The position numbers were made by a program, and so were the translations under genes. Source: Mesotaenium endlicherianum (taxonomy: Eukaryota). Taken from it: a stretch of 64,000 nt of DNA. Below, piece by piece: positions 1,951-29,849 of the stretch (its first letter is position 1; each line of letters opens with the position of its first letter). The stretch lies in NCBI GenBank assembly GCA_009602735.1, contig WELA01002856.1, positions 62,001 through 126,000 of the forward strand. Direction: 5' to 3'. The notes under the pieces were generated by a model. The model made no database searches. It was given only the letters and a program-made list of their open reading frames with translations, and was not told the DNA's origin.

Positions 1951-4149
1951 ACAAGCCTATGCCGAGGCCAAGACCAGTGGCAATTGGGGCCAATGTGGTG
2001 CCAACATCTGATGAGAGGGCAATCAGGACCGCACATCAGCAACAAGAAGAAAACGGTGTGCAAAGAGACGCAGCGGCAGCTGCCAGAGACAGAGCATTCA
2101 GGGAAGCTGAAGTAGCTGAGCAGATGAGATGCCACGATCTGTTGGACCGGATTGATAATCGGACCGCTGAATTACAAGCACCTCTGGAAAGAGAGGATAC
2201 ACCCATGAGGGACCAGGCGCCTGAGCAGACGGCGCCGTTGCCAAGCGCAGAAGACGATACGCAGATCGACCCGTCATCCCTGAGAAACGCCACTCGCAGT
2301 CAGATATTTGGGAGTCCATCTCCCGAAGCCACGACAACAAGGCGTGAGGAGACTTCAGAAAATGCCAAATCAAGTTATGATGCCAACCTCAGCCCACGAG
2401 CAATTGGGAACGGAAACTACTGGCAAGAAAGCTCAAGTAGCTGGGAAGCTAACCAAAAGTGTCTATCGTCTTCACCAGAGCAAGCGCCATTACAAGATAT
2501 GTCAGAGGAGTCTGAGAAAAGACCTCTGAGCCAACGCTTGAAGACTTTGAATACTATCTAAACCAAGCATCAATGCAAGAACGCCAATGCAATATTGGTG
2601 AATGGGCTGAAGAGAGTAGCCAAAATTCAGGAGATTTTGGGGGGTCTGCAAAGACCATATGCCTCGAGACGATATTCGAAGAACGCAAGGAGGAGTCGGG
2701 CAAGCAATTGTCCACAACACCTTCTTTGATGAGCCCTGAGTCGCAGGCTAAGGGGCAACAGCAGGGTTCAGCCAGTCAGACAGCTGAATCCATTGCAAGG
2801 CAAATCATGGAGCAGCTGGTGGAAGCAGACGCTCAACGGCACAAGGAAGAGGAAGTGGCCAAGACGGCAAGCATGCTGCAATCAGCCATCGTCAACTTGG
2901 CAAAGCTCAACACAGATAACGATGGAGAGCCACCACCACCTGGAGTGGAGAAGTAAGTCGAAGATGAGGCAGAGATGCCAGACCTTCCAGAGTTTGACCT
3001 GCCGTCAGTCACCAATGAAGAGGAGATACGGGAAGAAATTCCACGTTTCCCTATCCCAGAGCTGGGCCTGTTGGAGCTACAAGAGCTCAGAACGGATGAT
3101 TGGGTGGCCGACCACTTGATAATGGAGGGCCCCAGCCCGGCAGATCTATACATCAATCTGAGACCGCCTACATCCAATTTCCAACCGCCAGTTTTCCAGC
3201 ACCAGGAGCTACCCCACATCAACTACAACAGCCGCAGGAAGTGGCTGCCTGCACCGCTAAGGTGGAACCAACACAAGGTAATCCTCACGGTCGTGCAAGC
3301 GGACCAAGAAAGGTGGCCCGGGAAGGACATGCACCTTTCACGCGGATGCTGATACGTTATCTCAAGTATAGGGGAGCAGCTCAGAGAGAAGGGGTTCCGA
3401 AAGGAACCATGGCTCCTCCTCCGCAACCTATCCTGGACATTTTGCAGAGAGAGGGAGAGGATGGCTTGATTCGCAAAGCCATGGCATTGGAAATTCACAT
3501 TCCAGTGGTGCGACCTTCATCCACTGGAACGTGGGAGAAGGATAGTTCAGCTCCTAGGACACCTGCAGTTTCTGAAAGGGAACTGGTGGAGCTGAGAAGT
3601 ACCATAAGCCGCATGACAGCAGAACATGCTGTGTATGCACAACTAGCTGCAGCTCAAAGAATCGCAGACTCCTACACAAGTATGGACGGTTACGCCACCA
3701 GCCAGGGAAGAGTTTGGCACAACCGTTGCGCGCATTGCTACCATTGAGCGCGAGTGGGGTAGGACAATCGACCCCAGAGCCGATCCAGCAGGGTGGCCCT
3801 TGCCGAATCTGCCCCGACCACGTGAAGAGGGAGGAACGGTAGCTGGACTGCGGCCGATGAAGAAAGGTTCTTGAGGCAGCCCATCCGGAGGCGTCTGACA
3901 TACGCCACTCAACAGGAGAGGCGACGATCCATCGGAAAGGGTAAAAAGCCTAAGAAGCAAGCCGCAGAGCCTAAGTCAGCGGAGGAGCAAGCTGCGAAGC
4001 CTGCCACTCCACCGCCTCACAATCAGGCAGAAAAGCCTGAAGGTCAGGATGAGGGCGGAAAGCCCCCACTTGAACCCCAAGAGTAGCAACTACTGGATGC
4101 CTGTGTTGGGAAAAAGCAGCCGGCAGCTGAGGTTTTCACCATTGGAAAA

Positions 4150-5540
4150 ATGGTCTTATCCCAGCAGAGAGCACAATTAGAAAGGCTGCTGAAGAAGCAC
4201 CGCAAGGTGTTTGCTTTCACGAAGGAGGAGATTGGTAGAACCACTGCCAGTATGTGTGAGATCACACTAACTACTGATAACCCAGTCAGACTTCGGCCGC
4301 ATAAGCTCAGACGAAATGGGACTGTGTCGAGAAAACTTGCCAGGAGCTGCACAAGCTCGGCATGATTGAGAAATCAACCTCAGTACATGGAGCTCCCAAA
4401 GTAGTAGTTGCCAAGAAGGACGAGGCTTGCAATTATACAGCTACTCGTATGTGTGGGGACTACAGGCGACTGAATCTTCACACGGAGCCAGACAGCTATG
4501 TGATGCCTACACCAGAGCGGATCTTTGCGATTGCCACCATCGGGAAGGTGTTCAGCATCATTGATCTATGCCAACGCTTTAACGAGATCCTTGTGAAAAC
4601 AGAAGATCAAGGTAAGATCGCAATCTGGGCTCAAAGGGAACTTTGGCAATGGACAATAATGCCGTTTGGGCTGAAAAATGCCCCAGCCATCTTTCAGAGG
4701 ACTATGGATAAAGTGCTGAAGAGGCTGAATTTTACAAAGTCATACATTGATGCCGTAGTGGTGTTTAGCAAGTCCATAAAGGAGCACCTCGAGCACTTGA
4801 AACAAGTGCTCCAGCGCCTGGAGAAATTCTAGATGACGTTGCATCCTGGAAAGTGCAGATTCTTTGAGGCACATGTGCCTTACTTAGGACATGAGATTGG
4901 GAACAATGCTATGTCCCCTCAGGCTGTAAAGACTGAGGCCATTTACAAGATACCTGCAACTGCGAATGTGTCTGAGCTGAAAGGTTTATTAGGGCTAAGC
5001 GGATACTATCGTAAATTTGTGAAGGACTATAGCAAAATTGCTAAACCCTTGACAGAACTCCTGAAAGAGGATGTATCTTTCGTATGGACGGAAGCCTAGG
5101 AAAAGGCCATGAACGAGCTCAAGGAGCGGCTGGTAACCGGCGCAGTCTTGCGAACGCCTGACTACTCCAAGCCGTTCAATCTACACACTAACTGGAGTCG
5201 TGTGACAATCGGCGCAGTACTCACTCAGGCCGCAAGTCCTAGAAAGGAGTACGTCATTCCCTATGCCTCGCGCTCTAACAATCGAGCAGAGAGCAACTAC
5301 TCGTTCTACGAAAGAGAGCTACTGGCAGTGGTTTGGGCTGTCGCACATTTCAGAGAGTATCTATGAGGAAGATCTTTCACGCTGATCACAGATCACTCGC
5401 CGTTACTCCGGCTGATGAAGAATGGAGACCTCACTAATTAACTGGCTCGCTGGGCTCTCAAGCTCCAGGAGTACCAGATGACGGTGGTACATCGAGCAGG
5501 TGTACTCAACAACGACGTCGATGGACTCAGCGGAAATCCG
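4150..5540 (+). pseudogene. Reverse transcriptase-RNase H of A1 (disrupted)
   Basis: ORF fragments 4150, 4362, 4833, 5109 and 5478 carry gypsy RT/RNase H motifs, separated by stops or frameshifts. Confidence 0.92.
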
Positions 5541-5717
5541 GACCCATCCTCAGACGACAAAACAGGAGCTCGAGAAGACGAAGATCCAAGCAGCCCAACA
5601 GAGTTGGCAGTCGGCTTGGCCGAAATGGCTAGACTAGTAGCGTCAGGTGAAGCTGAGTCTCTACCCTTGTTTATTCCAGAGATCTGGAAAGATCAAGCCA
5701 CTATGCATTGACTGAAG

Positions 5718-7131
5718 ATGGGAGTCCACATGGAGGGATTATCTGTGAAAGAGAAGGACCACGTGAGCCATCGAGCTAAAAGATTTTGCTGGAAACGCAA
5801 TATCCTCTTCAAGATTGAAGAAATTGGTCAGGAGAAGTTGGTGCCAGAACCCACCAAGAGGCGAGCTCTTGTGCAGGCGATGCACGAGAATACTGGACAC
5901 TATGGTGTCAAGGAGACGTACAGTCTTCTGGAGCTGTCTTACTGGTGGAGGGGCATGAAGCAGCAGTGTGAGGATGTGATCAAGGCCTGCCAAAGCTGTG
6001 ATCGCGTCAAGGTTGGTTTTACACAGCAACATCCACACTTGCAACCTCTGCCAATCATGGGCCGAGGCTACCGGTGGAGCTGCGATCTCGTAGGTGAGCT
6101 ACCGCTGTCCAAGCGAGGTAACAAGTACATTATGGTCATGATTGAGCATTTCTCTAAGTGGATAGAGGTTGTGCCTCTAACTGCAAAGGAGAGTTTGGGG
6201 ACCGCGGAAACGCTCCTCAGCGGTGTGATAGTACGTCATGGAGCTCCAGCAGAAGTGCTGACAGACCATGGGTCTGAGTTCCAAGGATCTTTTCAGAAAC
6301 TCTTGGACAGATGCTTCATTCACCATCGCACTACATCTAAAGATCACCCACAAGCAGATGGTCTAGCAGAACGGATGGTGCAAACCATTAAGTCTGCTTT
6401 GCGCAAATTTTGCCTTGAGCATGATAAGCGTGATTGGGCTCTGGCCCTGCCATGGTTGATTATGGGTTACAGATTTAGCAAGCAAGCTGCTTTGGCGAAT
6501 TACTCGCCTTCTCAGATTCTGTTTGGCAGAAGTCTAGTAGTGCCCAGCAGCATCAAGCAGGAGTTTGAGCAGGTGAAAGACCTGGACAATCCCGATGAAC
6601 TGCTAAAGGTTATGGTACACCGCAAGGCGTTATTTGAGCGCATGATGCCTGCTGCCTTGGACAATCTAAAAATTATGCAGAAAAGAGACACACAGCGTTA
6701 TGCCAGGACGCAAGATGGGAGCTACCGCCTGCGAATGACGCAGATCCAGGATGGAGACTTCGTTCGACCGCAAGCGCCAGACCAAGACCACCATCGACAC
6801 CAGTTCAGGTGCAGTGATCTTACGCGTGAAACATGCGTTCGACATTGGTGTATTGGAACTGGAAGGTACTGATGGTAAGACCATGTGAGATCACGTGGAG
6901 AACTGCTCGCTGTGCCATTTGTCAAATATCGATCCTACGGTTAAGGCGGTGCCCGAGGAATTGGTGCCAGCCACGCCTTGTGCCAGCTGGAAAGTGGTGG
7001 ATGATCAAGAAGCAATGGTAACTTGCGATGAATGTAGTGCCCCTTGGCACACCTTCTGCATTGGTGAAGAAGAGATTATGGCAGGATGGTGGGTATGTCC
7101 TGACTGCCTTCCTAAAACTTCCAGCCGCTGA
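5718..7131 (+). pseudogene. Integrase with C-terminal PHD finger (A1)
   Basis: HHCC zinc finger and DDE core in ORF 5718-6872. The frameshifted tail 6895-7131 reads CASW..MVTCDECSAPWHTFC..WWVCPDC, a C4HC3 PHD pattern with one Cys changed to Trp. Confidence 0.88.
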
Positions 7132-13700: not shown

Positions 13701-15702
13701 ACGGCGACGATGCACCCCCACCCGCCAAGCTGAGGGTGAGGAGGGAGCTGCAAGGTGGAGCCGAGGTCGCTCTCTTCAAAAAGGGCTCCTGCTGCTGCAG
13801 CGCACAAGGGTAGTGCTGCTGCTGCTGTGGCGGCGGCAGCAGCGCCTGCGGCAAGGGTGCAGCATGGGGCGAGAACAAGGGCAGTGCGCACTGCTGCTGC
13901 TGCCGCCTACTCGCCTGCATGAGCAGAAGACACACATTCAGCTGTCAGCTACATCCCTTGACTCACAAAGTATTCGGCAGTGGTGAGATTTCTAAACCAT
14001 GAGAGACAGGGAGAAAAAAAAGATTGAAATGTGCCACAGCCACTCTAAGTGTCCCCAGGCATCAATCGCGTGCCCCAATAACTCAAGACTGCACGTCTGC
14101 GCGCACGTGCGTCCCTCTGGGTTGTGGGGACTGCACGCACAGACGGCTGTGAGTACAGTCAGATACAACTACTTTTTGAACTTCTTTAGATTAGCACGCA
14201 CACCCACACAAACATGTAGAAAAGAATGAATACTACACATGACAACGTGCACTTGCACAGGAACTTCATGCTGTAGGGTATCATGCCATGCACATCCACA
14301 CATCCACGAGATACTTGCGAACATCCATCTACGTACATATGTGCATGTTTGGAACTTAGACCAACAATCATAGGATTCAAAAGAGTACAGCTGCTGTCAC
14401 CTCTGCATGAATCTGACATGCAGCTCATGATCTTGCGGAAGGAAGGAAGCATACCAGGTGGTGGTGGTGGTAGTAAGGGTCTCCTCCGCCTCCAAAGGCA
14501 GCACCAAAGTCAGCAGTGGTAGTGGTGGTGGTGGTGCCGGATGACGCGCCTGGACTGGACGCCATGCAACCGAATGCGGCTGCTGCGAGGGCATGCGCCT
14601 GGGGCAGCTGCGGAGGAGGCTGCGCACTGCTGCTATCCGTTGGTGGCGCCTCGTCCGCACGCTCAACAGAGCCAGCTAGAGCAGCAACGGCAGCGGCAGT
14701 GGTAGCAGCAGCAGCAGCATTGTGGGCAGCCTTGCGCGGATATGGGTGGGACGGCTTCCTCTTGGGGCGCGGGGGCGGAATGTCGATCTCACTGATCCCC
14801 ACTGCTGCTGCCGCACTGGCCCCTCCTCCTGTACCTCCTCCAGCTCCACTGCTGCCCAGAGCATCCCTCTCGAGCTGCACCCCATTCAAGGACTTGCATC
14901 CAGTCAGCTCCCTACCTCCACGCACAGAAACCCGCCCTGCATGGCAAGAGGATGAGAGAGAGACAGGCAGCACAAGAGAGAGGGTGCACCTTGGAGAAGA
15001 ACTTCTGAGCATGGCTGCGAATCTGCACTGCTGTCTTGGACCCGATATGTTCTGCACAACAAGAGCGCCACAGTGCACATTAGAGCACAGCAAGACACGA
15101 CACAGGTAGCTACATCCCTTGCAGGAGGATACAGTTGCATCAAGCACAGCATCATGACATCTCGTGCATGCAACAGTGAATATACCTTCAATGCGACGCC
15201 AAGCACGACCATAAAGCTTCAGTGCTTCCAGGAACTTCAAGTGCTCCTCTTCTGTCCATCGCTCTCTCTGCTTAGTTATAGTGTAAGGCTTTCGAACCTG
15301 CCAAGAAGGCCCACCAACAGAGAACACGCGTCTCAGATAGTGTTTGCTCGTCACCAACATGGCACAGACAAAGCACCAGCCTGAACTGATGCGGCTAGAA
15401 CGATAACGGAGAAGCCACCGCCAGTAGAACACTACATCTAATTCGCTTCAGAGAGCACATGCCTAATTACCATTGAAAGAATCTTACAATAACGTCAATA
15501 TGAAAGAACAAGAAACCAGCAGGCAGTGATAGATCCCTACCTTCAGGGACAAATCGTCAACCGAAAGTGAACGCTCCATGCCGTGACTTTTGGTAGTCGA
15601 AGCAGCTACAGACGTATGTGGGTGGTACGAATACATATTACTGCCTGAAGCCGAGGTTAAGATGTTTGAACCACTTGACTGCACCGGAGCAATGGGTGGC
15701 AC
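10704..15702 (-). CDS. CCA1/LHY/RVE-like: CCA1/LHY/REVEILLE-family single-MYB (SHAQKF) transcription factor, multi-exon, very low-complexity
   Basis: Exons 15297-15186, 15051-14990 and 14874-onward give [81 protein letters not shown]. Downstream family motifs are [13 protein letters not shown] and C-terminal GFMPYRR. Start codon and several internal exons are uncertain. Confidence 0.9.
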
Positions 15703-18331
15703 AAAGCTGCACCGATATTACTGAGGATTGGCTATTTCCTTCTGCACAATAATGTCGGTAATCATCTCCGTAAGCTGCCATTCAAGAGCCACGAGGAACT
15801 TGGAAGCCATGTACAAGGTACAATTACGTAATGCTCGAAAATAAACAAGATGGCTAACAATAGGACTTCTCGTGAACAACAAAAGAATGTAATACTGCTC
15901 ACATATGATCAACTACCGCAAGGTACAGCCAGCGACCCCTAATGCATCGCTTCTTGCGCTTGGTTTCTCGGATGTGACAAGACTGACCGGCTCATATGTT
16001 TACCATTTGAGGAAGAACGCTTATCAGAGGCTGTGACATCTGCACATGACCATCTGCATATGTAGTCGAGTGACATGTACGCCACCTACTTATCGTCTTG
16101 AACTACACAATACTCTCAAGAATGCATGTACTACCTCAGAATCTTGCTTGATTGAACAGAAAGTGTATGCGCTTAAGTTTATTCTTTGGAGTTTCAAAGA
16201 TTCCACACAAAACCTGTCAATGCGTCATAGATCCCGACTTGAATCCAAACCCCTAGTGTTGTTAACAAGAAAGTAAGACAAGAACAACCGTGCAATGGAG
16301 CAACATGTAAAATCACGCTCTCGAGAGACAGACCTAGGTGCAAAAAGCGACTATGGGCCAAATTGCAGTGAGGTGTGGGGGCTTGGGGCCAGGGCCCAGC
16401 AGACGAGGATGGAGGAACGAGCAGCTGGTCACTTTTTCCAACTTAACGGTGTCCACATAGTCTACAGGCGTGTAAAGGGTTGTTGGTCCCACGTGTGGGA
16501 AGACCTTGCCCGAGCTCCAAATTTGTGGCTGAGAGTTACTTTATGGGCGTATCCGACGTAAGCTACTTTTTCACTTTTTGCTCTAAAGTTTGTACTATAT
16601 GTACCCTAAAAGTGCATTCGTCAGAGACATGCTTGAAGGCAGCTGCTTTGAGGGGTATCTGTGGGCATCTGTGGGTATCTGAAGTTTGAACTACGAAAGA
16701 GTGGGGCAAGAGTGTAATCATCTGACAATATAAAAGAGTGGTACCAGCCAAAGGACTGGCTATGACAGCTCGTGTTCTTACTTCATGGGCCACATCTGGC
16801 CGTCCAAAATTCCTCATGCTGGGAAAGTACATAGCGCGAATATGATGGTGCTCTTGAAATCCCTCTTTTCACATGCTCGAAACCTCGAAGTGGCTGAAAG
16901 GCTTCATCGTCCACACTCCAGGGCCCAGGCCACTCCAGGCCCATCTAGGCCTGTCCGGGCTCTTCGGGCGGAGGGAATGCACCGTGACAAGCAGGCTTCC
17001 CGTTACTATCCGCCACAATCCGCTGCTGCATATTAGCGTATATGCTGCAAGTCACTGAAAGTACGCCGGTTGTAGGGGGTGATCCACTTGTTTTCCGTAA
17101 CATATATTTTCATGATCTAATTCTGTGCTTTTGGTCCTTACGTGACACAAGGGTGTCACATTCTATGCCAAGTGTCGAAACATTCAGACACTCTTTTGAA
17201 TAGGTTGGGCGAAGTCGACGAGATTGTGGCTAAGCTGGGCTACTTTTAGGTGGTCCATATTGCTCTTTACTGCACTTTACTGGGTCTTATCAACCCTATT
17301 CGGATACGCCCGTGGTCGTTTGCCGCCTCGCTTACACTCCTCTGCTCCGCTGACTATTCTGGGTCTTATCGATCCAAGATGATCCGAGATGGCTTTTGAG
17401 GCCAGATGAGGCTCGTCAGCCGCCACGGTTTTTAGCGTCGTTCGTCTCATCCATAATGATCTTGCACGATCCTCACGTTTGCCTCGGCACCTAATCCAAA
17501 TGCTCAAAGCAGCTCAAAGTTCATCTATTTTGAAGACACACAAGGAACTCCATAAGCACCAATAAGCACCATGAAGGGACATTTGTGGACTGCGGATCTC
17601 TTTAGTCTGGAGTCTGGACTCTGGAGTCTGGACTCTGGTGGTGTCTGGATACTGGGGTCGAGCAGGGTCGAGAGCAAGTCGAGACTCAACTTTCAAGTGA
17701 TGTCGAGCCGTCTTTGACTTTCGGAAAGCCGGAGCAGGTGGGAGATCTTTTGGCTTTGGCTTTTAACGGCTTCACAAACTTTCACGCACGGTCGGCTGAC
17801 AAACAAATGCGTGTAATTGTCGGTGAAAACATACACAACATCAAGATCCAAGTTCCAACTATCATATCTCGAAGCGGCAAGTCATCCCGTCCAATTCCGT
17901 CCTTGACCCTCTAATCTCCATTTTCACATCATCTAGCAGTGATTACCCATTAGCCAGAAAGTTCGTAGACTACCTTCCTGGACCGGTCTGAAAAGCGGTT
18001 AATGTCGTCAGGAATTGGTTGGTGAGTCTGGTCGACCGTTTTATGAGCGCTCAATAGGTTGCCAAATGAAGCAAAGTGAGCGTTCGACCAGTCTCTGACA
18101 GTAACCGACCACCGTGGGCACTTGTAAAAGATAGTAGATTGAGGTACGGGCAATGAAGGAAATAAAAACTTTAGGGCAAAATTGACGGCTTCGTCAAGTG
18201 TCGTCTGTCTCATTTTGTAGGTGCTTCTTCTCCACCAGGTACGCTTCACTGTGCTATTCGGAGAGAAGTGTTGTGGCCTGAGTGCTTCATTATGCTCAGT
18301 AGAGGTGTTTGTCTTTAAGCCTGCAGCAGGG

Positions 18332-19867
18332 ATGGCAGGATCGCGTCTCCTTCCAAACCTTCCCACCAGTGCTCTTCCCATGCTCGGGTATGCTGCCTGG
18401 CAAACCTTCCTTCAATTGTGTGATAGTGACGACGATGAACAGACGTGCATGAATGCGTACGACAGTGACGACAGCACAGACGAAACTTTAGACTTTCTGG
18501 GGTTTTACGACGCGGGTAGAAGGAATAGCGCGGACATGAACATGCCCCTGAGTAACATTATCTTCATAACAGCTTTCTTTGGTTATGAGTCTGACATTGA
18601 GGCTCGTATAGACCACTTGTTTCGCTCCATTCAGACGTCAGAGTGGTACATCAGACCCCGTTCCACTGATTGGAGTCAGGCTATCCAACACACAGTTGCT
18701 TTTCAAGATCCTGACCAGTGGATTCCCCTCTTCAGGGTCTCTGTTAAGTTTTGGGCTTCGCTTGTTGTGCTCCTAGAGCCCTTCCTTGCCACCCATACCC
18801 CGTATTGCTTCTCTGGCATACGCAACAGAGTGATAGATGTGCCCACAATGGTCTTGGTGTCGCTGTTCAAACTAGGGACAAGGATGACTTACCTAGCGTT
18901 ATCTGCACACTTTGGCCTAGGTGTCAACACAGTTTCAAATATTGTGCACAAGTTCACAGTCGCTGTCACTACCGAACTAGGGTCCTTTGTGAACATGCCC
19001 CGCCGTGGGCGTGCACTTCAGGCTTCTATAGAGGGGAATTTTAATGTCAGAGGTTTCCCCAACTGTGTTGGGTCCATTGATGTGTCCCACATAGAAATTC
19101 AGAGACCTAATTTAGGAGACCCCAGGGCCTACTGGGATCGTAATAGCAATTACAGTATCTGCCTGCAAGCTGTCGTTGGACATAATGCGTTCTTCTACGA
19201 TGTTGCTGTCGGAGCTGTGGACTCCATGCACGACATGCGCATTCTAAAGCGGTCATGGTTGGGAAAAAAGAACCAGCATGGGCGCAGGCTCTTTAGGGGG
19301 CCTGCTATTGTGCATGGTGACACACGTATCCCTCCTTACATTATCGGGGATGGAGGCTACTCCCTAGATCATTGGCTCGTCTCTCCCTACAGGAATAGTA
19401 TGGCAAACCCCCTCTGCGAAGAGCAGAAGCTCTTCAACACGGCCCTCTCTTCGACGCGCATGGTTGTGGAGAGGGCGTTTGGTATGTTTAAGTCTGTGTG
19501 GCGTATGTTCGGGGGTAGAGTGAATCACCCGTCCCAGGTAGGACGCTTAGAGCGACAGATACGCACCTGCTGCGTACTTCATAACATGCAAATAGTCATG
19601 AATGAAGACCCGCGGGCAATTGAGGANGTTGAGGATTGGCAGCGCTTGGATGGGATGCCCCTGTTGCCTCAGTTGCTGGCGGAAGGTGATGACGCGCTGC
19701 ATGAACATGATGATGGAGCCGGTGATGGTGGCGCAGATAACGACGACAGCGATGACGACGGAGATGTACCACTTGCAGACGAGGCTGCAGGTGCTGCCAT
19801 CAGGGAAGCACTGTTTGATTATCTAGGGTTTGGTGCAGTAGATGTAGGGTTTGGTCCAGATGTTTGA
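18332..19867 (+). CDS. Harbinger/HARBI1-type DDE transposase
   Basis: GFPNCVGSIDVSHIEIQRP, NYSICLQAVV, SMHDMRIL, IIGDGGY, WLVSPY, FNTALSSTRMVVERAFGMFK..WR, CCVLHN, with an acidic tail. Likely ATG at 18332. Confidence 0.95.
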   Translation: MAGSRLLPNLPTSALPMLGYAAWQTFLQLCDSDDDEQTCMNAYDSDDSTDETLDFLGFYDAGRRNSADMNMPLSNIIFITAFFGYESDIEARIDHLFRSIQTSEWYIRPRSTDWSQAIQHTVAFQDPDQWIPLFRVSVKFWASLVVLLEPFLATHTPYCFSGIRNRVIDVPTMVLVSLFKLGTRMTYLALSAHFGLGVNTVSNIVHKFTVAVTTELGSFVNMPRRGRALQASIEGNFNVRGFPNCVGSIDVSHIEIQRPNLGDPRAYWDRNSNYSICLQAVVGHNAFFYDVAVGAVDSMHDMRILKRSWLGKKNQHGRRLFRGPAIVHGDTRIPPYIIGDGGYSLDHWLVSPYRNSMANPLCEEQKLFNTALSSTRMVVERAFGMFKSVWRMFGGRVNHPSQVGRLERQIRTCCVLHNMQIVMNEDPRAIEXVEDWQRLDGMPLLPQLLAEGDDALHEHDDGAGDGGADNDDSDDDGDVPLADEAAGAAIREALFDYLGFGAVDVGFGPDV

Positions 19868-20341
19868 GAAGGTTTCACTTTATTAGCACTTGCAAGCAGC
19901 TGTGCCCCTCACTGCATTTGTGACTCCGTACGATGCAAGCGACATGTACCTGCCTCACACGGCACCTGTTTCAAGGCATCTTACTGCTCACATAGCCTTC
20001 TTTGCAGTGTATATCTTGCATTCCACACTATAGCCATCATCCACCCACAGCTTGCACATTTATCTACTTGCGATGCAAAGTCTGGCTGGGAGCGTTTGTG
20101 CTTTATATGCATGCGCTCATAGTGTAGGTCCAGTTCTCCGTAATGCAGAACAGGTCCAGGTGCTGTCACATAGGACATCTTTAGATTTTGCCATTAAACA
20201 AACGTCATGTCTGTACACATATGCATGTGCTGCCATGCTTGTACACATATGCATGTGAACCCATGCTTGGTTAAACTATCATCTGGGTGATGTACATGTA
20301 GAGGTCCATCCCTATGACTGCATCCAGTACCTTGTGCGTCT

Positions 20342-21964
20342 TTATGTGCAAACCTTCTCCACTACTGCCTTGTTAAAATATCTTCTAGGGTGCTTGTTAC
20401 CTCTCACCCACTGCAAGCCTTGTGAACCAACCAACAAATTCACATGCTTTGTGTTGCACACGTGCATGTCTAATCTGCCTCTATCCTTCTCTGCGAGCCA
20501 AGTATTGAACAAGTGAACTACTTCAGCACATCCCAGAGACTTTGCATTGCTCTCGTCTTTGATTTGCTCCTCCACAAACTCTCCAAAAAGTAACGCACAC
20601 TCTAAGGCCTTGCTAGTACCCACTTTGTACTCCTGCTCTCCTTTATGCAACCTCTCTAATGCGCGCCACTCATTGCTTGACAGCCGCCTTCTTTGGCTCC
20701 CACCAATGTCCACCTGCTCCCCACTCGTAGCAGTCAAATGAGACACGGCAGTGGCACGCAGGTGTGATCTGCATGCACACAATATACAAGTTTTAAGCCT
20801 GTTTGGAAGCTGAGATACCTTTCTCCAATCCTCGTCTGTCCTGTCTCGGTTGAACCACTGCACCAATGCCCGCTTTCCTCTTGCTTATTCTTCAGGCGTG
20901 ACAGTCACTTCTGTGCCTGGCACTGCAGATACAGCGGTAGCCTCTACAATTGTGGAGTTCAGAGCCCGGTGAATGCGGCGTGCCCCGCTTTGCATCTGCC
21001 ACGCACTTTTGGGCCACTTTTCTGAGACCTGAAAGATGATGTCTTCCTTGTAGCTGTACTTCTCTTCATACATGTGCTCCACCTGTGAGGCTACCCAGTT
21101 TGCTAAGCCCACCGGTATGGCGTTCGCTAGATGGAGGAGTTGCTGTTTGGGATTATTCATTACGTCTGTCCAACCTGCAGGAAATCCTTGCAACATCTCA
21201 ACTTGAGCCACATTCAACAAGTGCAAGCGAGTGCTCCGCCCTGCCTCTTCCACAACAAGCATTCTGTCGCAATTACTACCTGTGAGGGTGGGGCACAGTC
21301 CATACGACTTGTGAGGACTGATCTCGTTCAAGCTGGTCACCCACACGCCTTCGTATTGTGACCTGCGTCGGAGCCTGAACACTGCACACCTGCAGTTGTC
21401 TGTGTTATTGCAACAGCCGTTGACGGGGAGAAGCACGTCCCTTGGGTCCCCGCACCTCATCGCAACGAGGATGAGCCTCTCTCTCCTCTGTGGCTGACCA
21501 AACGAGGCGCACTGAACACATCTATAAGCCCAGTTGTACCCCAACTCGTGAAGTGTTGTTGTTACGTCTTCAATATAAGGCCTACCGACGGATGTCACCC
21601 TACTTAATATGCCTGGAACATTCTCTAAGATTACCATGTTCACTTGTTGTCCTTCCAAAAGCCTCCACAAATGCTCGACCAAGCCAGTGCGTTCTAACGT
21701 GGCCGGTGCGCCCATTGTACTTGATCGGCTAGAGACGTCTTGGCACGGGAAACCTGCAAGGACTAAATCTGTAGCGGGCGGCAAATGAGACAGGCCGCTC
21801 ACGTCTGGCAGTATCTGAATGCGCGGAAACTTTTGCCTCAGCAACCTCCCACAATATTGGTCGCTTTCCACCATGAGAATAACATCGTGGCCTGCCTGCA
21901 TAAATGGAACTTCAAAGCCAGCTATTCCTGTGAATAAACTACAGATTCTCAGCGGTGGAGCCAT
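20342..21964 (-). CDS. C5 cytosine DNA methyltransferase (bacterial Dcm-like motif order) with a C-terminal extension; one in-frame TAA at 20885-20887
   Basis: From ATG 21964: motif I SLFTGIAG, II VESD, IV LAGFPCQDVS, VI ILENVPGI, VIII FGQPQRRERLILVA, IX LNVAQVEMLQGFP, X LANAIPV. ORF 20342-20866 continues in the same frame six codons after the stop. Confidence 0.93.
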
Positions 21965-23130
21965 AGTGAGCAGGACAGTTGAATATATAATGATACAGTT
22001 AGAGGTGTGGTAGAATAGACACTTTAATGATTCCCACGCTTGTCTCACTCATGTCAGAGTAGTTAGAGTACAAAGTGCTGATTCTTCAGCACCATGTACC
22101 CTTTTTTTTATGTGGCTTTGAATGTAGGGCCGTTAAAATTTTAGTCGCTATTTTATGATTTAATCAACGTGCTCTAAATTGCTCTAAACTGCTCTACACT
22201 GCTCCACATTGTGGTCGTATGACATTATGTCACTTTTGACGGTTGCAGTTTATTTTGGTCAGCGGTTTTTGACTTTCCGTCGTGTTCGATAGCTGTCGTT
22301 ATTGTCGGTATCTTCTACAACCGATTTGTAATTTTGTGTCTTGTTGCGTCTTTTCACAGTCTTGCCTATTCTTGCCAGCATTTTGCAGCATTTTGCAGCA
22401 TCGAGTGCCATCGACTCCCTACAAGGTCACTACCATTTTTGCCACTTCTTGCATAGGGCTGCATGGCTATTGTATTCTACGACCACAATTCCCAAACATT
22501 CCTTTGCATATCCAACTTGATCTCGGTACATCCATACCCCTTTCTTGCCTTTGTGCTCATCTTTTCTCATTCGTGGGTCTTATGCTCTGTTTAAGTTCAC
22601 TGTTTGCTTCTTCCTTTGCCTACTTCGCTCTCCAAAAACCATGTGTCTGAAACTCGTGTGCGTACCCTTGAAAGTGAAATAGCAAACTTGAAATAGCGGG
22701 GATTGAACAGCCGAATTAGGCACTCCTTTCTGGTAACCAGGGGACCTTTTTGCGTGATCGTCTACGTCTCTGTCTTGTGGATGCCCTTTCTAGCCGCGAA
22801 CCTTCGGAGCAGCCTCTATTCTGAATGGTACTCTACTTTCCTTCTGTTTTTGGATTTTTCCGATGCGAGTGCTAAGTTCCTCCTGTTTCTATCCTTCTGT
22901 TATGCTGTGTGTGTAATATACTGTAGTTGTGCTGCTCATACATTGGCTGTTGTAACTGTTTTTGTTTTGCATTAGTATGTGCAATTGCTGTTTTTGTGAT
23001 AGTTGAACAACTCTCAGCAGTTGTTGATTGAGGTATAACTCAAAATAATATAGTACTTTGTATATGCAATTGCTGTTTTCTAAGTACTGTGATGCTGCTC
23101 AATGTACTTGTTGTGCTACAGGAAGAAGCC

Positions 23131-23646
23131 ATGGATGCTTCAGACAACGTGACATGCGCTCGTGGGATAGCGCGTGCTTCTATGGAGATTGGAAAAACAG
23201 TAATTGAAGCACAAGTGTGCAGCCTGGAAGAGGAGTTGCTGGACTTAGAGGAAGATTTCAGTGAGGTTCAGCTTACAACGTCCCGTGCAAGGATGACTCG
23301 GCACGCACCTGAGTTGGAGAGATTTTTGCACGTGAAGAGCGCCGATATCAATGACAGGATCAGTGCTGTTAAACTAGACATATCTAACAGAAGGCAGATT
23401 TACTCAGTGCTTGAGAAATGCAATCCTGAAGATGAGGAATTTCTACACCTCATTGCTTTGGTAATAAACATGGGGGATGACCGCAACAGGGATGGTTGCA
23501 GCCCTGCAAACCATCAACAATGTTGCAAAGCTATCTTTGAGGCTACATTAGCTGGCGACGTAAGCCACAGGGGATCAACACAATTACGCCTGTACATCAT
23601 AGGGGCCGCAGCACGACTGAACCTGCCTCTGCCTCTACAATTGTAA
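23131..23646 (+). CDS. Orphan helical ~171-aa protein inside the Harbinger element
   Basis: ATG (GCCATGG) follows an apparent intron acceptor (ctacag) after an AT-rich leader. The ORF is uninterrupted and acidic/helical, with no recognisable motif. Confidence 0.55.
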   Translation: MDASDNVTCARGIARASMEIGKTVIEAQVCSLEEELLDLEEDFSEVQLTTSRARMTRHAPELERFLHVKSADINDRISAVKLDISNRRQIYSVLEKCNPEDEEFLHLIALVINMGDDRNRDGCSPANHQQCCKAIFEATLAGDVSHRGSTQLRLYIIGAAARLNLPLPLQL

Positions 23647-24140
23647 TATAGTTTGCGAGGAATTTCGGGTATAATGCACTGTCTTGTATGCTTAGTTTAT
23701 TATGTTGACGTGTAAGTGGCACATCACTGTCTACATGCAGGTTTGTGTCATAGGTTTACTTGTATCATAGGTTACGTTGTCTAATTGCACAGGAGATGAA
23801 AGGTGGTACTGGATTCAGATGCTGGCGTTGCGTGTTGCTAGACATTGCGTCTTTTTACACAGTAGAGCGCAACCCTATATGCAGTGTGACCACTAAGTAC
23901 TAGGTCTATTATATTTAGTTATAAACCATTTGCATATTTGTATTATATTTGCAAGTCATGCATGCTGCCAGACTGTGTACGCGCAGGTTTGCATACAACA
24001 ACAACAACAATATCTCTGAAATAAGCGGAAGCGCGCGAGCAATTACAATACAAGTATAATCCTACAGTACTTCTACTGCTCACAACACTCACACTAAATG
24101 TATCCTAAACCTGACTACATACGCGCTGTCGTATCCGAAT

Positions 24141-25551
24141 CTACTCAGCCAGCAACTGCATCGCTCTGCGTCTCGTGTCCTTGAAAAGCAAACGTGCATC
24201 ATCGTCGCTAAGCCTGTAGCATGCCAGTCGCGCGGAATACTGGGCATGGCTATAATGCCATGTGAACGGTCCTAAGCATGTGCAACAAAATGACACAGAC
24301 GTGTTCACGGGTATACAAGCGAGACCGTCAATGAGCTGTAACAGCTGGCAGCTACCCAGCTTGAGCAGCTGCAAACCTGCAAGCGCATCCATTGTGTGCC
24401 AGACAGAGTCTGTGGGAGGGTCTGTCTTCCGACCTGAGCTCGAGCCATCCCCGCCCATCCAATTAAGGTAGAGAGTGCTAAGCCCCGTAAGGACATGCAA
24501 GGCGGGCCACAGCACCTCTTCGTTCATAGTCAAGTGCAGGACGCGCAGATTAGGCGTAAATGAAAAGTAGTTTCTCTGCATCTGTTTGTTAACGACTAGG
24601 TCCAGCTCCTCTAACAAAGGCATGGGCGCGTAATAATGCGCGGGATAGTACCACATATTGTCAATTTGCGCATGATAGAGCACAATGCGGGGGGGAGGGG
24701 GCGCATGGGGGTCATGTCCGGATGCCCAACCTCCCACGGGTGTGGGCACACAGACCCCACATTGAGGGACGTCAATTGCGTCATTTTGGACACAATGTCC
24801 ACCCCCTGCATGCCTGCGTCGGCGAACTGCAAGGACAAAACAAGCAATAACAAAGAGCGTTAGGAATGACACCAATGCACGCACTCAAATGGTTGCTACA
24901 CACAAACTGCAAGCAAGGTACATGGATGGAGGAGGCAGGGCAAGAGTGCACCTGGACATAAGGCATCAAGAGCTCCTTCAGGGTGGTTATGCCGCTCAAT
25001 GACGCTGAACCTCCAAATCATTAGTCACAAGGCGGAACTCCCGGAGAGTAGTCAGCCGAGGGATGGACTTGCTGATAGAAAATACACAACCTGGGTACGA
25101 GGCCGACCACAGGCGCATGCGCTGGCAGTCGCATGTCAGCTTCTTCATGTGAACCAGTGCCATGAGGTCCATAGCTTCCAATGCCCGGCCAAACTTCAGG
25201 CTGGCTGTAGTGCTAAACTCACAGTCCACCGTACGAAAGTCCAGATACAGTTCTTCGATTCAACTAGGCGTGCTGAAGAAGTGCGCTGCGGTTGTGAGTG
25301 CCCCATCATCTCCCATGAGTATTAGTGCAACTGATTTGATGTGCGGAAAGTCTGTCCCTAGTGCTGTGAAGAAAGGAGCCAATTCCTGTGGGGTCCATCC
25401 AACCACNGTCCAACCAACCACACACTTATTGTCGGTCTCAAAGCAGGGGCATTGAGGCACTGGGTTGAGGACTAGTACAGAGAAGAAGGGTACTGGACCT
25501 GCACCCAAGCAGGACTGACTCACGACATCGCAGTCCGGAGTGCAACGACAT
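24141..25551 (-). pseudogene. LRR (RNI/F-box-LRR-like) protein gene inside the Harbinger element; spliced and disrupted
   Basis: Repeated LxxLxL units across frames (LTTLREFRL, ITTLKELLM, MTQLTSLNV, MPLLEELDL, PNLRVLHL, LTGLSTLYL, LAGLQLLKL). GT-AG introns are apparent, with a stop at ~25260 and frameshifts. Confidence 0.6.
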
Positions 25552-25850
25552 ACTGGCGGCCTTTGACGGCAAACGCTTCACAACAACTGATTGAGCACTG
25601 CACACACATGCAGGGGTAAATATAAACCTGGAGGAATAAGACATTAAGCTAGCACACATGTCATATGGAAACCATGTAGTAAACAAATGTATTGGATAAA
25701 ATGAATAGCTGTACAGATGTGTTGCTGCAGCCATACACCTGGCACTACAGGGCCTACACACAAGTACTACTGCTGCACTAGTATTTGACCTGACAGCTTA
25801 CTCAATTGTGCGAGCTACAGCCAGCGGAACAGCAGGAGCAAATGAACCCA

Positions 25851-27797
25851 CTACGAGCCTGGTACGTGACGGGGCGACACTGGAGCAGATGTACCGGAGG
25901 GTACAGATGGGGACTGTGCACGAGCGGTAGCGCATCCGGCAGAGGGCGCACTCGGCCCAGTTGCAGCCCCACTTGCCGCAATATCTGCTAGTCTATTGAA
26001 GGCAGCAACCATACCGTTCCCCACATTCTTCTGCACCGCTAATTTTTTGGTCAACATTTTCATCTGCAATGCCTGTTGGATTTGCATCTGTTGCATCTTC
26101 ATAGCATGCTGTTCCTGGACAAACAAAAGTCTAGCGGTGTCAGCGGCCCGCTGGTCAGCATCGCGCCCTCTCTGGATGGCCAGTTGCTCCTGAAACGCCG
26201 AGAGCATGCACTCCTGTCGTTTCCCGCCTACCTCAGCAGCTGCACTGAGCTCTGCTTGTGCAGCGACGTCAGCAACGTATCGCTTTCGACGCCTACCAAT
26301 GGCAGTTGCGTCTGCCCCAGTAGTACCTGGGGAAGAAGTAACTGGCGGTGATGCTGCGCGTGGTGGCATAGGACGAGACGGCGTGGTTGCAGGGCGGGGT
26401 TGCGGGGGGCTCTGGAGGGGCGACGCCTCGCGCGTTGGCCTTGGTGCTGCCGTAGGAGTCGCCTGTGGGAGGGGCACATCTTCAGCAGAGTCGTCCTCAT
26501 CCCTGGTTGGGCTTGAGCAATCATCCAATCCAGGTTCTTCATTCATATCTCCAAGGTCTGCATACATACCAGATGCAGTCCTTTGAGATGCCGCGGGGGG
26601 AGGAAGGCTGTCCGCACGTGCTGGATTCTGCGAAGAAGGTGTCTGTGGAGTTGCAGAGGTTGCCCTTGAGGTACCTGCCGGGCCCTTGTCCCAGGCTGCA
26701 CGAGTAGCAGCTGCTGCTAGCCTGCGAGCTGCAACCCTTCTCTTGCGTTGCGCTTCCATAAGTGCGTTATGGTCTTGCTCGCCGGGGTTGTTGTATGCCA
26801 GGCTATTCTCAGCTATTCTGGCCCAGTGATCGTAGACGTCTTTCTTTGGGCAGTGCCCATCTGCCCAGAGGCCATGGTTTTTACGGTAGGTGGTCTCTAA
26901 CTCCCAGAACGACGGTTGTCCAGTGTGCGGCTTGTACTCGTAGTCCCAGATTGTCTTCAGGCCCTTGAGCATTTTGCTCCAGAATTTGGAAACGGCCGTC
27001 CCTGNACCGTCCCTGTCCTCTCAATATAAGTGAGTAGCCTGAGGTCCAACGCTAGCTCATCCCACATCTGGGTGACAGTCTGAAACTTTGCGTGGGGATC
27101 GTTGGAGCTGTCCTTTTTTCTCTTCATCATGGCAGAGTGGACGTCAATGAGATGACACTTCTCGGGATCTGACCATGGGATAGTCTTCGCNTGGGGTAGT
27201 CTTCGCAGGGACAGTGACGTCGGTTACCGAGGAGGGCTGAGCAGTAGAGGCGGTAGAGCGTACCTGCGACGTGACACGAAACGATTTCAGTACGGAGCAG
27301 TAGACAGCAGGGGTGGTAAGGCATCTTGCAGGCACCACTAATTGCTGCGTACGTGCGGACTTTACATTATGTCTTACCTCTGTGATGTTAACAGAGGACG
27401 AAGGCACGACCAACGCCACGAACTCCAACCCGGTGCCAGGTGGAATCGATGGCGACTGCAACTGTTGAAGGCCAGTGGCGGTGAAGGAGAGCTGTGTGGA
27501 AACGTGTTGTCCAGTCACACCTTCGGAGCTGCTGACAGCTGGATTCCAATATGTATGCGGGGCCTGCCGATTCGGCACATGCACGAAGGGGTTACCTCCC
27601 TGAGGGAACTGGGGACCGGGCTGCGTTGAATAATGAGCTGCATATTGCACAGGGTGGTGTAAATTATGGTTTACATAGGACCCCTGCAGGGCTGAAGTTG
27701 GCAACAAAGACGGAGATGTACAAGAACTTAGACCAGCGCAGGAAGGTGGGCGTTCATTTTCACACTCACGACCTGCTGGCTTGTCCTTGGGATCCAT
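25851..27797 (-). CDS. Harbinger Myb/SANT-like (trihelix-type) DNA-binding protein, ~639 aa
   Basis: Collapsing the duplicated sequence around N27191 and N27005 gives one ORF: IPWSDPEKCHLIDVH..QMWDELALDL..ERTGTAVSKFWSKML..IWDYE..GQPSFWEL. A Pro/Ala-rich linker and coiled-coil follow, as is typical of the second Harbinger gene. Confidence 0.85.
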
Positions 27798-28949
27798 GGC
27801 AGCAACTCGTGGATAATGAGGGGGTGGAGCTGCATTCTCTTATACTTGACCACCCCTACTGCTGTGAGAGGAGTTGCATGCACAGCTGTGAGTCAATACA
27901 TTTTTGTCAAGTGCTTGATGCAGACGGACGGCACAAGGCGCCGGCAAGTCAGCCGTTATGTGGTGCACACATTTTGTGCCGAGGGTTGCACATTTGTCTT
28001 TGAAAAACTTGTAGAGGTGCTTGATGTGGCAAATTGCTTCTGGAGGGAAACCGTGCGGGTTTCATTCATGTCAGAGAATGTGAGATTTTTTTCGGGCAAT
28101 TCGTGCGGTGCCCCGACCACGAGGTAAAGCAACCAATGTCGACTTCGGTCTGCCGGTAGTCCGAAGCAGTCTGCAGCCACAACGATACCCCGATGTATCG
28201 ATGCAAAAATGCTAGTCCAGACCAGTTCAGACCAGTCGAGACTGCTCGGGAGAGTCTGCAGACCGTGGAGGTGGGGAAGCTCCACGCGCATGCGGACGAA
28301 CGTGGTTACACCGTTACCATGATCAGCTGCCGAGCCCGACATCGTGCCATTTCGCGGACAAACGAGGCAGATTGCGTCTCGTATGCTTGTTTTATCCCAG
28401 GTATATAAAAACATAGCGGTGGATTGCAAATGTTTTCGGTTGATTTGCGATGGTTGTGCTTTGTTTCTTGTGGATCGATCAAGTCACTCTACACTTTTGG
28501 CCAACGACCTTTCACGCGTGTAGACAGATGCTGACGTCGTGGTCCGTCCCGGACTACAACTGTCGGCCGTTGATGAGTGCATCTGGACATCGAGTCTGGC
28601 GAGGTGGTCTGAACAGGTGGTCTACGGACGGGATATCGTCAAAATTGTTGCTAATGGGTAATCACTGTAGGTTACCCCCTGCGACTACAGTGCTCGCCGC
28701 TGCTCGCCGCAGATGCATGGACTTATTTTGTGGCATTTTGTGGTCCTTCTTTCATCTCTTTTTTGGCGACAAAATTATGGCGTCGCTCAATGTCGTGACT
28801 GGCAGGTATTGAGGCTCATACGCTTATTCAGGTCGACTTCACAAGCAACGCGCGCTCAAGCATGTCTCTACGGACCTCCTGGGCCATCCTGGGCGACTAA
28901 ATCACAACTTCGTGTCATTCAAGGCTGGAGTTAGGTACCATCCCTACTA

Positions 28950-29849
28950 GGGCAAATTACCAAACTAGCACTCAAAGTTTCTTTTATTTCAGAATCTAGC
29001 ACTCGCACATGTAAGGCGAGTCCACCTAGGCCTTCAACGAGCAAATGACGTGCCACACGAATTCGCACGCGACCCAACCTGACGCACCACTTCTCCCTCT
29101 CGTTCCAAAATCTTCCACCACCACTTTTTCAACTGACCCACCTTCACAAATCAAATTGCCAAAGGACACCTAATTTTGGTCCACACTTATTTTCAATACC
29201 TTTTCAGCAGGACGTAAGCTTGTACACTTAGGCGCGCATAGACAAAGAAAGGCGATAAATTAGCATGCATAGCTAAACACGACGACAGTTGTCAGGCATT
29301 CAACAACGCTTGTTAGCGCATCACAGGAAAGTACAAAATATAGAGATGCTTGTATGTTCGCAAATTTGCGAATAATGATTAAGAGAGGGGAGGGAAGTCA
29401 GGGAGGTCCTAGCGAGCTCTCATCGGGTGGCGAGCAGCTGGCGAGCAGCTCAATCATACCGGTACTGCTAACGTAGCAATTAAGTCAGTTCACAGCGATC
29501 GAACTATAGCTCAATTACATGCAAAAATTTTAAGCGAGTACGAGAGCGGGCAGGTCGAGCTCAGTAAAGCAGACGCGAATGAGCTCAGACACAACTGCAA
29601 GAGGCTGGGGCAGTTTAGTTCGTGAAGGTGGGTCAGTTAGAAAAGTGGTGGTGGAAGATCTTGGAAACGAGAGGGAGAAGTGGTGTGTCAGGTAGGGTCG
29701 CGTGCGAAATCGTGTGGCACGTCATTTGATTGTGTAAGGCCTACGTGGACTCGCCTTATATGTGCGAGTGCTAGTTTTGTAATAACGAAAGTTCGAGCGC
29801 GAGATTCAGAAATAAACGAAACTTTGAGTGCTAGTTTGGTAGTGTACCT
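28950..29849. mobile_element. Non-autonomous Mutator-like (foldback) element, 900 bp
   Basis: Imperfect TIRs of ~210-240 bp (28950-~29160 vs ~29608-29849) starting GGGCAAATTACCAAACTAGCACTCAAAGTTTC. Degenerate 9-bp TSD TCCCTACTA / TCCCCAGTT. No internal coding capacity. Confidence 0.8.

Follow-up and report, generated by a model that had tools for sequence, protein, structure and literature searches.

A PHIS/Harbinger-type DNA transposon carrying a gene for a predicted cytosine DNA methyltransferase

The window, i.e., the whole 64-kb stretch of DNA that was analysed, contains an element of 10,731 bp between its ends that encodes both a transposase and a C5 cytosine DNA methyltransferase (MTase). 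Judged by its sequence, the element is a PHIS/Harbinger-type cut-and-paste transposon that is likely autonomous. The reading that we hold, with slightly better than even confidence, is that this transposon has been recently mobile, exists in about three copies and carries an MTase of the ChloroDNMT lineage that would have been kept by selection for methylating DNA in and around new copies. Taken alone, it appears highly probable that the element is real and multi-copy and that every copy has the MTase.

Structure and class of the element

The features of the element are the following, with the evidence for each in brackets.

17934..17936, + strand: left target-site duplication, TAG (sequence)
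17937..17954, + strand: perfect 18-bp terminal inverted repeat at the left end (sequence match and shuffle control)
18332..19867, + strand: PHIS/Harbinger DDE transposase (Pfam, alignment, protein search)
20342..20884, − strand: C-terminal tail of the MTase, 180 aa, in frame with the catalytic part (contigs from the two DNA libraries)
20885..21964, − strand: catalytic part of the C5 cytosine DNA methyltransferase, 359 codons, ChloroDNMT-like (Pfam, motifs, model, tree)
23131..23646, + strand: orphan ORF, 171 aa, further exons possible (ORF list)
24141..25734, − strand: LRR-like gene spread over several frames and interrupted by a stop, by eye possibly of F-box/LRR type (Pfam below threshold)
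25851..27797, − strand: putative partner protein of Myb/SANT type (trihelix-like), with a length of about 640 aa after discounting two duplications (contigs and Trp spacing)
28650..28667, − strand: right terminal inverted repeat (sequence match and shuffle control)
28668..28670, + strand: right target-site duplication, TAG (sequence)

The terminal inverted repeat (TIR), CAGTGATTACCCATTAGC, is exact at both ends. With up to 3 mismatches allowed, these are its only two matches in the window, and two matches were obtained in none of 100 shuffles. The perfect 18-bp pair, the TAG directly flanking each repeat and the order and strands of the five genes (transposase +, C5-MTase −, orphan +, LRR-like −, Myb/SANT −) are as described in an earlier note on this DNA. 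The PIF/Harbinger label given there holds in its wider sense: the element is of PHIS/Harbinger type by its DDE_Tnp_4 domain, with a transposase alignable over the catalytic region and TIRs with a duplication within the 0-3 bp of the PHIS superfamily (one insertion site). TAG and a C-initial TIR, again at one site, are instead non-canonical for the strict PIF/Harbinger group, which the available part of its description defines by a TWA duplication and a TIR whose first base is in most cases A or G (PMC4482050). A search of Rfam gave 0 matches.

The transposase starts with an ATG at 18332 or 18380 and matches DDE_Tnp_4 (4.7e-26, positions 1-158 of 158), the profile named in the earlier note, and Plant_tran (3.4e-15). 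In the alignment, the catalytic motifs GSID, IGDGGY and VVERAFG are intact and the DDE triad is complete, while the match to HTH_Tnp_4 falls below the cut-off (E 6.5e-4, 19.7 bits vs. 27 bits). The closest protein is a Mesen1 paralog (47%), and fern Plant_tran-type transposases are also among the nearest.

The other genes are less well defined by homology. The orphan ORF has no meaningful match in Pfam, PHROGs or PDB. The LRR-like gene lies at the position and on the strand previously assigned to it, but its label finds matches in Pfam below threshold only (LRR_4, E 0.052; LRR_8, E 0.066); the gene appears decayed, and its stretch 24432-24941 shows no indel in a contig of one DNA library (X3). 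The three frames of the Myb gene in the window are caused by short duplications at N27005 and N27191, where the contigs are 11 and 16 bases shorter, so that the frames join and the frameshifts are assembly artefacts. Its Myb/SANT label is tentative: three spaced Trp residues fit the trihelix pattern, but the split gene pieces have no significant match in Pfam, PHROGs or PDB, and a homologue search with the Myb piece was empty.

Copy number and mobility

Depth was compared in X1 and X3, two DNA libraries from one sample that is possibly the source of the window, bearing in mind that contig depth is not a copy number. The element contigs listed have depths of 222-240 in X1, against 73.4 for the single-copy left flank, and of 195-250 in X3, against 85.6, which corresponds to 2.3-3.3 times the flank. 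The depth of the MTase equals that of the transposase, and an X3 contig of 2,402 bp (19026-21436, depth 238) spans both genes. Since the MTase appears by depth to be present in all of about three copies and a contig bridges it to the transposase, the one-off capture or misassembly that the earlier note had listed against its own claim is unlikely. Alleles at depths of about 75 and 150 are consistent with one and two of three copies, respectively. There are thus likely around three young copies, roughly 1% apart, all with the MTase.

It is very improbable that the extra depth stems from a segmental duplication or from collapsed copies with no recent transposition, in which case the TAG pair may join the flanks of different copies. 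Such an origin would agree with the four N bases of the window, all inside the element between near-duplicate words one base apart, which indicate that the assembly merged alleles, with the stretch 17635-17964, unresolved and at a depth above single, and with the absence from the 64-kb window of an empty site with a single TAG, which the earlier note had suggested looking for. It is at odds, however, with the left flank, which in each of the two libraries is a contig of single depth reaching 17615-17634, and with the right side, where the bin 28481-28940 has a depth of 151 and a drop at the TIR predicts 148-152 for an element depth of 238-250 (130 for 195). Other flanks are also hinted at by one contig of a further set (X5), whose match to the element side begins at 17933 and whose 25 outer letters do not match, and by one single-depth X1 contig that joins the element at 17939 from a different context.

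The methyltransferase and its origin

The catalytic part of the MTase can be read without an intron and matches DNA_methylase (6.2e-33), as the earlier note had led one to expect. Motifs I, IV (PC), VI (ENV), VIII (RxR), IX and X are present in order, with AN in place of GN in motif X, and residues C74, E114-N115-V116, R161 and R163 are kept. The predicted model (pLDDT 80) has an HhaI-like fold (Foldseek M.HhaI 5.7e-16). As far as sequence can tell, catalytic competence is fairly probable.

After codon 359 the window reads TAA at 20885-87, while the contigs of both DNA libraries have G at 20887, giving CAA (Gln), and the ORF most likely continues to 20342, for a total of 540 aa. Because the contigs have Gln at the MTase stop and also Gly at two transposase positions, as in the closest relative, their sequence can be considered the more intact form. 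There is no need to assume a 50-nt intron in the tail, a possibility that was rejected because the frame is open without it. The tail contains no PWWP or Tudor domain in Pfam and has no significant match in Pfam, PHROGs or PDB, with no usable match from the atlas search either; it is possibly winged-helix-like, going by its residue pattern. The model of the 540-aa read-through, built from a 4-row alignment, has a pLDDT of 40, too low for use. A similar MTase-plus-tail layout is found at 28-29% identity in a metagenome cluster (P0139, P0308 and P0309; n = 3, 498-601 aa). The likeness of the tail to that of P0309 is weak (score 43, equalled in 19 of 2000 shuffles, with algal tails reaching 39). 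When metagenomes were scanned with P0139, none of the 71 pattern matches was confirmed.

In the tree, the MTase groups with green-algal PWWP-bearing DNMTs, apart from bacterial relatives and from the retrotransposon DNMT3-type enzymes. The clade that it forms with 17 algal-type rows, 5 of which bear green-algal names directly or via their cluster, has a support of 82/91 in the presence of the other long row, rising to 100/98 when that row is left out. From its taxa and PWWP domains we infer that this clade is the published ChloroDNMT, a comparison made by description and not by the sequences of that paper. The branch of the MTase is 1.3 substitutions/site long, and two homologue searches gave no relative above 46% identity. 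The protein has the algal-type Cys cluster and PT-x-T motif and is without FYWTEG/GIPSP, motifs by which the groups are themselves partly defined. The gene would likely have been taken from the green-algal ChloroDNMT lineage, long ago.

There is little probability that the gene came instead by way of a virus or directly from a bacterial enzyme of restriction-modification type, which has the FYWTEG motif. Bacterial genomes do encode relatives at 422 of 600 pattern matches in an alignment-based scan, the best 80 at 30-36% identity and with bit scores near the algal ones, whereas a single-sequence scan confirmed 0 of 63 pattern matches. The intronless gene would suit a bacterial or viral source, and the AU test for the MTase with the bacterial clade is borderline (p 0.0504). 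The tree placement and the algal motifs nevertheless speak against a bacterial source, as does a CpG o/e of 0.69, the same as that of the element, compared with a median of 1.19 for 63 bacterial genes; the 10 viral matches are weaker. Recent bacterial contamination was rejected on account of the eukaryotic flanks and the host-like CpG depletion.

Expression and mutation signatures

RNA was evaluated in the three sets with a control gene (X6, X17 and X20); the zero of X14, a set with no control gene, was left out. The RNA check over the element that the earlier note had called for was negative for the MTase, whose RNA was seen in none of the three controlled sets. In X17 and X20, of which 13% and 24% of the runs were read, 0 reads fell on the element, and a neighbouring host gene took nearly all of 222 and 274 reads, respectively. 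Contigs of X6 span the transposase and not the MTase, and the splice joint in one of them defines a transposase RNA form that omits 18388-19672, catalytic core included.

The earlier note suggested that the MTase might mark the TIRs of its own element. The CpG o/e is 0.97 at the left end and 1.0-1.2 at the right end, as compared with 0.26-0.96 in 400-bp interior tiles. CpG depletion is thus seen in the interior but not at the ends, and the TIR contains no CG, which argues against long-term CG marking of the element's own ends. Among the transitions listed between copies (n = 27), 5 are in CG, 7 in CHG and 15 in CHH, vs. a background of 17, 22 and 61%, with no CG or CHG excess, and no target motif emerged from k-mer depletion or from the context of copy differences.

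Proposed role of the methyltransferase

If the element behaves like known Harbingers, its Myb-like protein would bind the element ends and recruit the transposase, which would cut at the TIRs and leave the 3-bp duplication. The resting element would be silent, with part of the rare transposase RNA spliced to the core-less form. The MTase would act only upon de-repression of the element, in an unsampled stage, and would mark fresh copies as 'self' or damp their expression. Upon capture, the gene would have lost its introns together with the histone-reading PWWP/Tudor domains and gained a different tail; with the readers shed and the tail exchanged, DNA or other proteins of the element, not host chromatin marks, would direct the enzyme to its targets. 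Whether the MTase is kept for the benefit of the element is an even call. All catalytic residues are retained despite the length of the branch and the distance of the relatives, a pattern pointing to purifying selection.

It is possible, if doubtful, that the element is mobile and that the MTase, LRR-like and orphan genes are passive cargo (Pack-type capture) with no role in its life cycle, the MTase perhaps having been passed on from another transposon in which it used to matter. The missing MTase RNA and the unrelated cargo genes alongside the MTase are in line with this possibility, and copies about 1% apart are too close to reveal selection. In addition, no MTase was found near distant Harbinger transposases at 78 metagenome loci (mostly around 30% identity; 26 of at least 5 kb), and TET genes have been judged, in the accessible part of the report, to be frequently but passively exchanged among DNA transposon lineages (PMC12730594). 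Passive carriage is less easily reconciled with the intactness of a 540-codon frame and of all catalytic residues when the branch is very long and the searches gave no close host gene, or with the contrast between the LRR-like gene, which looks broken, and the MTase, which does not. Still more doubtful is a transposon-adapted ChloroDNMT branch in green algae, in which PWWP/Tudor would have been swapped for a DNA-binding tail and cut-and-paste elements would use the sequence-aimed enzyme to set their own methylation state or to silence competitors or genes of host defence; transposons would then also bear the three metagenome relatives. If true, the capture of DNMTs would be a strategy to which DNA transposons of algae have turned repeatedly.

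With an MTase kept for methylating new copies, as we favour, the element would be able to lay down the very type of mark by which elements of its sort are normally silenced. Retrotransposon DNMTs have been explained by the methylation of new cDNA; as a cut-and-paste element makes no cDNA, a conserved 5mC writer on it would need another purpose, and the element offers a new setting for testing the self-marking idea. The MTase itself, being compact and having no introns, would be a convenient representative of its green-algal DNMT lineage for a first assay. Harbinger proteins have been repeatedly recruited for chromatin control in plants, and the host, likely a freshwater green alga, is probably near land plants.

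Comparison with known systems

The PIF/Harbinger group, as far as its description goes (Han et al. 2015, PMC4482050), has in common with the element a DDE transposase (with an HTH, for which the match here is below the cut-off), a second Myb-like ORF (putative here), short TIRs and a 3-bp duplication. Its mean length is about 4.1 kb vs. 10.7 kb here; the element has TAG in place of TWA (or CWG, TNA, ANT), a C-initial TIR and three additional genes, a DNA methyltransferase among them. Harbingers with a chromatin- or DNA-modifying enzyme as additional cargo do exist, namely the SET-domain HarbingerS of Phytophthora, mentioned in the earlier note without a name, and the TET-bearing PHISTA of rust fungi (PMC12730594). 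In the available account these act in histone methylation or 5mC oxidation and in another host group, while the cargo here would write 5mC; PHISTA has TA duplications and no Myb partner, unlike the present element with TAG and a putative Myb-like gene.

The earlier view that DNMT capture is known mainly from retrotransposons is right for KnitGypsy-Dnmt3, SymbioDIRS-Dnmt3 and SymbioLINE-Dnmt, some of which are active de novo on CG and for which self-marking has been proposed (de Mendoza et al. 2018, PMC5890265). These are likewise algal transposons with their own C5 methyltransferase, but a DNMT3 is described there as fused in Pol or LINE ORF1, whereas a separate ChloroDNMT-type gene sits here on a class II element with no cDNA step. 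The same view has to make room for Mariner-1_OLpv and Mariner-2_PGv, TIR DNA transposons of giant viruses bearing a methyltransferase, of C5 type in Mariner-1_OLpv (Bao and Jurka 2013, PMC3627910). According to the sections at hand, these belong to another superfamily and have an endonuclease beside the methyltransferase, in a restriction-modification-like arrangement, while the element here has none.

ChloroDNMT is a chlorophyte and charophyte lineage with a frequent but not universal PWWP, whose substrate and sequence context are not described in the accessible text (PMC12344493), and it is possibly identical to 'Chlorophyta DNMT6-like' (PMC10538959). It shares with the MTase the Cys cluster and target-recognition motifs; its published members are treated, in that text, as ordinary genes, whereas the MTase is transposon-borne, intronless and without PWWP/Tudor, with another tail and a long branch. 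A literature search, with Repbase not covered, found no published DNMT-carrying Harbinger, in agreement with the earlier note. What appears to be new is a DNMT on a Harbinger; SET and TET on Harbingers were already known, as was a viral Mariner with a C5 methylase. Kinship of the MTase with a second C5 methyltransferase gene was rejected (different type, no tblastn cross-match); that gene is borne by a Gypsy element in the same window, at 1218-2558.

Structure of the element

The element spans window positions 17937 to 28667 (10,731 bp) and ends on both sides in an exactly matching 18-bp inverted repeat. Allowing up to 3 mismatches yields no third match anywhere in the window, and none of 100 shuffles gave two. 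TAG directly flanks both ends, and the perfect terminal inverted repeat (TIR) pair with a TAG target-site duplication (TSD) described in the earlier note is thus borne out. The following features lie inside the element:

+ strand: transposase (Pfam DDE_Tnp_4, 4.7e-26; Plant_tran, 3.4e-15)
minus strand: C5 cytosine DNA methyltransferase, MTase (Pfam DNA_methylase, 6.2e-33)
+ strand: orphan ORF of 171 aa (ORF call)
minus strand: LRR-like region (sub-threshold LRR matches)
minus strand: long ORF split over three frames, the putative Myb gene

The Pfam matches agree with the transposase and oppositely oriented MTase read earlier, and the observation of an MTase-carrying element is confirmed and strengthened. 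As for the PIF/Harbinger label, the element falls within the PHIS superfamily as defined in the available text of PMC4482050, whereas its one examined site departs from the strict PIF/Harbinger TSD rule of that text.

The transposase retains intact triad motifs, and its closest relative among 7 matches is a Mesen1 protein (47%), followed by fern transposases, an order that points to a zygnematophyte alga as the likely host. Two of the 44 differences listed inside the element between the X1/X3 contigs (two DNA libraries of one sample) and the window restore a Gly, as in the closest transposase. The LRR-like region appears decayed because it contains an internal stop and frame changes, and the X3 contig covering 24432-24941 lacks any indel able to repair one of these faults. 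No split piece of the putative Myb ORF gave a database match to support the Myb/SANT label; its three spaced tryptophans fit a trihelix pattern.

Just right of the element lies a MITE-like long inverted repeat (28951-29848; X1 bin mean depth 4,676 at 85% likeness). On the left, a short tandem-like repeat at 17604-17638 recurs in many other contigs, and one single-depth X1 contig contains it together with the left end of the element, differently arranged.

Copy number and assembly

Copy number was judged from contig depth of the element relative to its left flank in X1 and X3, whose shared sample is possibly the window's own source. The left flank is one contig (depth 73.4 in X1, 85.6 in X3), and among the contigs listed those of the element reach 222-240 (X1) and 195-250 (X3), that is 2.3 to 3.3 times the flank, a depth ratio that is not in itself a copy number. 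Variant depths of about 75 and about 150 are consistent with variants present in one copy and in two copies out of three, and the 130 substituted places over 14 kb in X3 indicate that the copies are about 1% apart or less. One X3 contig (2,402 bp, depth 238) extends from the transposase, of which it includes the 3' half, into the MTase, of which it includes the greater part, and the two genes are therefore linked in the collapsed sequence. At the right end, a bin depth of 151 is compatible with coverage dropping to the single-copy level at the TIR; on the left, the stretch 17635-17964 is not resolved, and two hints of other flanks come from an X5 contig (another public run) whose 25 letters outside 17933 do not match and from an X1 contig of single depth that enters at 17939.

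All four N bases of the window (19627, 25407, 27005 and 27191) are inside the element, each between near-duplicate words that differ at one base, and are likely assembler marks at sites differing between copies. At three of these sites there are contigs without 9, 11 and 16 bases; with the 11- and 16-base gaps, the three frames of the putative Myb gene become a single ORF some 640 aa long. The element is likely a young, low-copy, autonomous PHIS transposon.

The methyltransferase and its relatives

Position 20887 is G in both DNA libraries. In the majority form, Gln therefore replaces the stop that follows MTase codon 359, which lengthens the ORF to 540 aa. A 53-row alignment including the MTase shows no variation at the catalytic Cys74, ENV at 114-116, Arg161 or Arg163, and motif X reads AN. 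The predicted model (pLDDT 80) matches M.HhaI in structure at 5.7e-16. The 180-aa tail has no match in Pfam, PHROGs or an atlas search, and may be winged-helix-like. The CpG observed/expected ratio of the gene is 0.69, the same as that of the element, compared with a median of 1.19 in 63 bacterial genes.

A word-based protein search gave 366 proteins. Its top matches are 27-37% identical, and all those that carry organism names are bacterial. Relatives of a widespread bacterial subfamily make up 422 of 600 pattern matches. A full HMMER search ranks first longer proteins with an MTase and PWWP, often with Tudor, the named ones from Cymbomonas, Ostreococcus, Trebouxia, Haematococcus and Bathycoccus. 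These PWWP-bearing relatives fit the ChloroDNMT lineage, which the available text of PMC12344493 places in chlorophytes and charophytes, often with PWWP; the term occurs only in that paper and its preprint.

A tree was built from 57 of 185 near-full-length rows: the window MTase, 17 algal-type (13 of 19 motif-picked and 4 chosen manually), 25 of the 115 rows of FYWTEG type and 14 others. With P0139, a metagenome protein and another long row, the window MTase stands beside it in the algal clade at 82/91; without P0139, its place in this clade is at 100/98. A tree constrained to place it with the bacterial clade falls at the border of rejection (p-AU 0.0504). A Cys cluster is present in the window MTase, in 16 of 17 algal rows and in none of the 25 bacterial rows, and the FYWTEG motif is missing from the window MTase, these motifs having partly defined the row groups. 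The FYWTEG-type bacterial subfamily (L001-L080), some members of which are fused to Vsr, is widespread, adjoins the algal clade in the tree and may be the lineage from which ChloroDNMT came.

The three metagenome proteins P0139, P0308 and P0309 are almost identical to one another, lie on contigs of 2.8-9.5 kb and pair a ChloroDNMT-like MTase with a similar tail. All three align with the MTase over the full length at 28-29%; the tail alone scores weakly against P0309, with 19 of 2000 shuffles as high. They are candidate transposon-borne relatives in another alga.

Expression

A neighbouring host gene served as RNA control. From 13% of run X17 and 24% of run X20, 222 and 274 reads were placed, nearly all on the control gene and 99% alike, and zero on the element. 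X6, RNA-like by a spliced host contig, has element contigs at depth 2-5 over the left end and transposase only, and X5, which has no control gene, has coverage of the transposase and of part of the LRR-like region. The element is therefore nearly silent in the conditions sampled. In the RNA-seq check proposed earlier, no RNA of the MTase gene was seen in the controlled sets X6, X17 and X20.

One RNA-like X6 contig (depth 5) skips 18388-19672 and so loses 1,285 bases from within the transposase gene; the skipped segment has GT..AG ends once the cut is shifted by one base. The predicted 69-aa product would be without the DDE core, and this RNA is a possible self-limiting form.

The control, a host Myb gene at 14428-16333 (- strand), is expressed and alternatively spliced, and is probably REVEILLE/LHY-like by motif. 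It lies some 1.6 kb away from the left end of the element.

Possible role of the methyltransferase

Harbingers move by means of a transposase and a Myb partner, and this element would use the same route. The MTase is likely kept by selection, as it is intact on a long branch, has no close relative among the host genes found and sits beside apparently decayed cargo; passive carriage by the element is a less probable but serious alternative. The most likely role of the MTase would be the marking of new or de-repressed element copies, on the model of the self-methylation that the available text of PMC5890265 proposes for DNMT-bearing retrotransposons. The simple self-marking version is disfavoured here because CpG is depleted in the element interior and not at its ends, the TIR contains no CG, and the listed copy differences show no sequence-context bias. 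The interpretation given in the earlier note is partly supported.

Relation to known elements

Harbingers with SET or TET cargo are described in the accessible part of PMC12730594, so the SET-domain group mentioned earlier does exist in print. That DNMT capture is known mainly from retrotransposons agrees with published cases (PMC5890265) but has to accommodate a C5 methylase carried by a viral Mariner (PMC3627910), as far as the available texts go. In the accessible literature, including PMC9861306, PMC10538959 and PMC11982613, neither a DNMT-carrying Harbinger, in keeping with the earlier statement, nor a transposon-borne ChloroDNMT was found; Repbase, Dfam, subscription papers and supplementary figures or trees may hold one.

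The window also contains a Gypsy-type retroelement (950-6869 and 58462-63700) that resembles published Gypsy-DNMT3 elements. The second copy has no MTase match; the first carries a C5 methyltransferase on 1218-2558 (Pfam E 5.6e-6), with motif I upstream of an in-frame stop.
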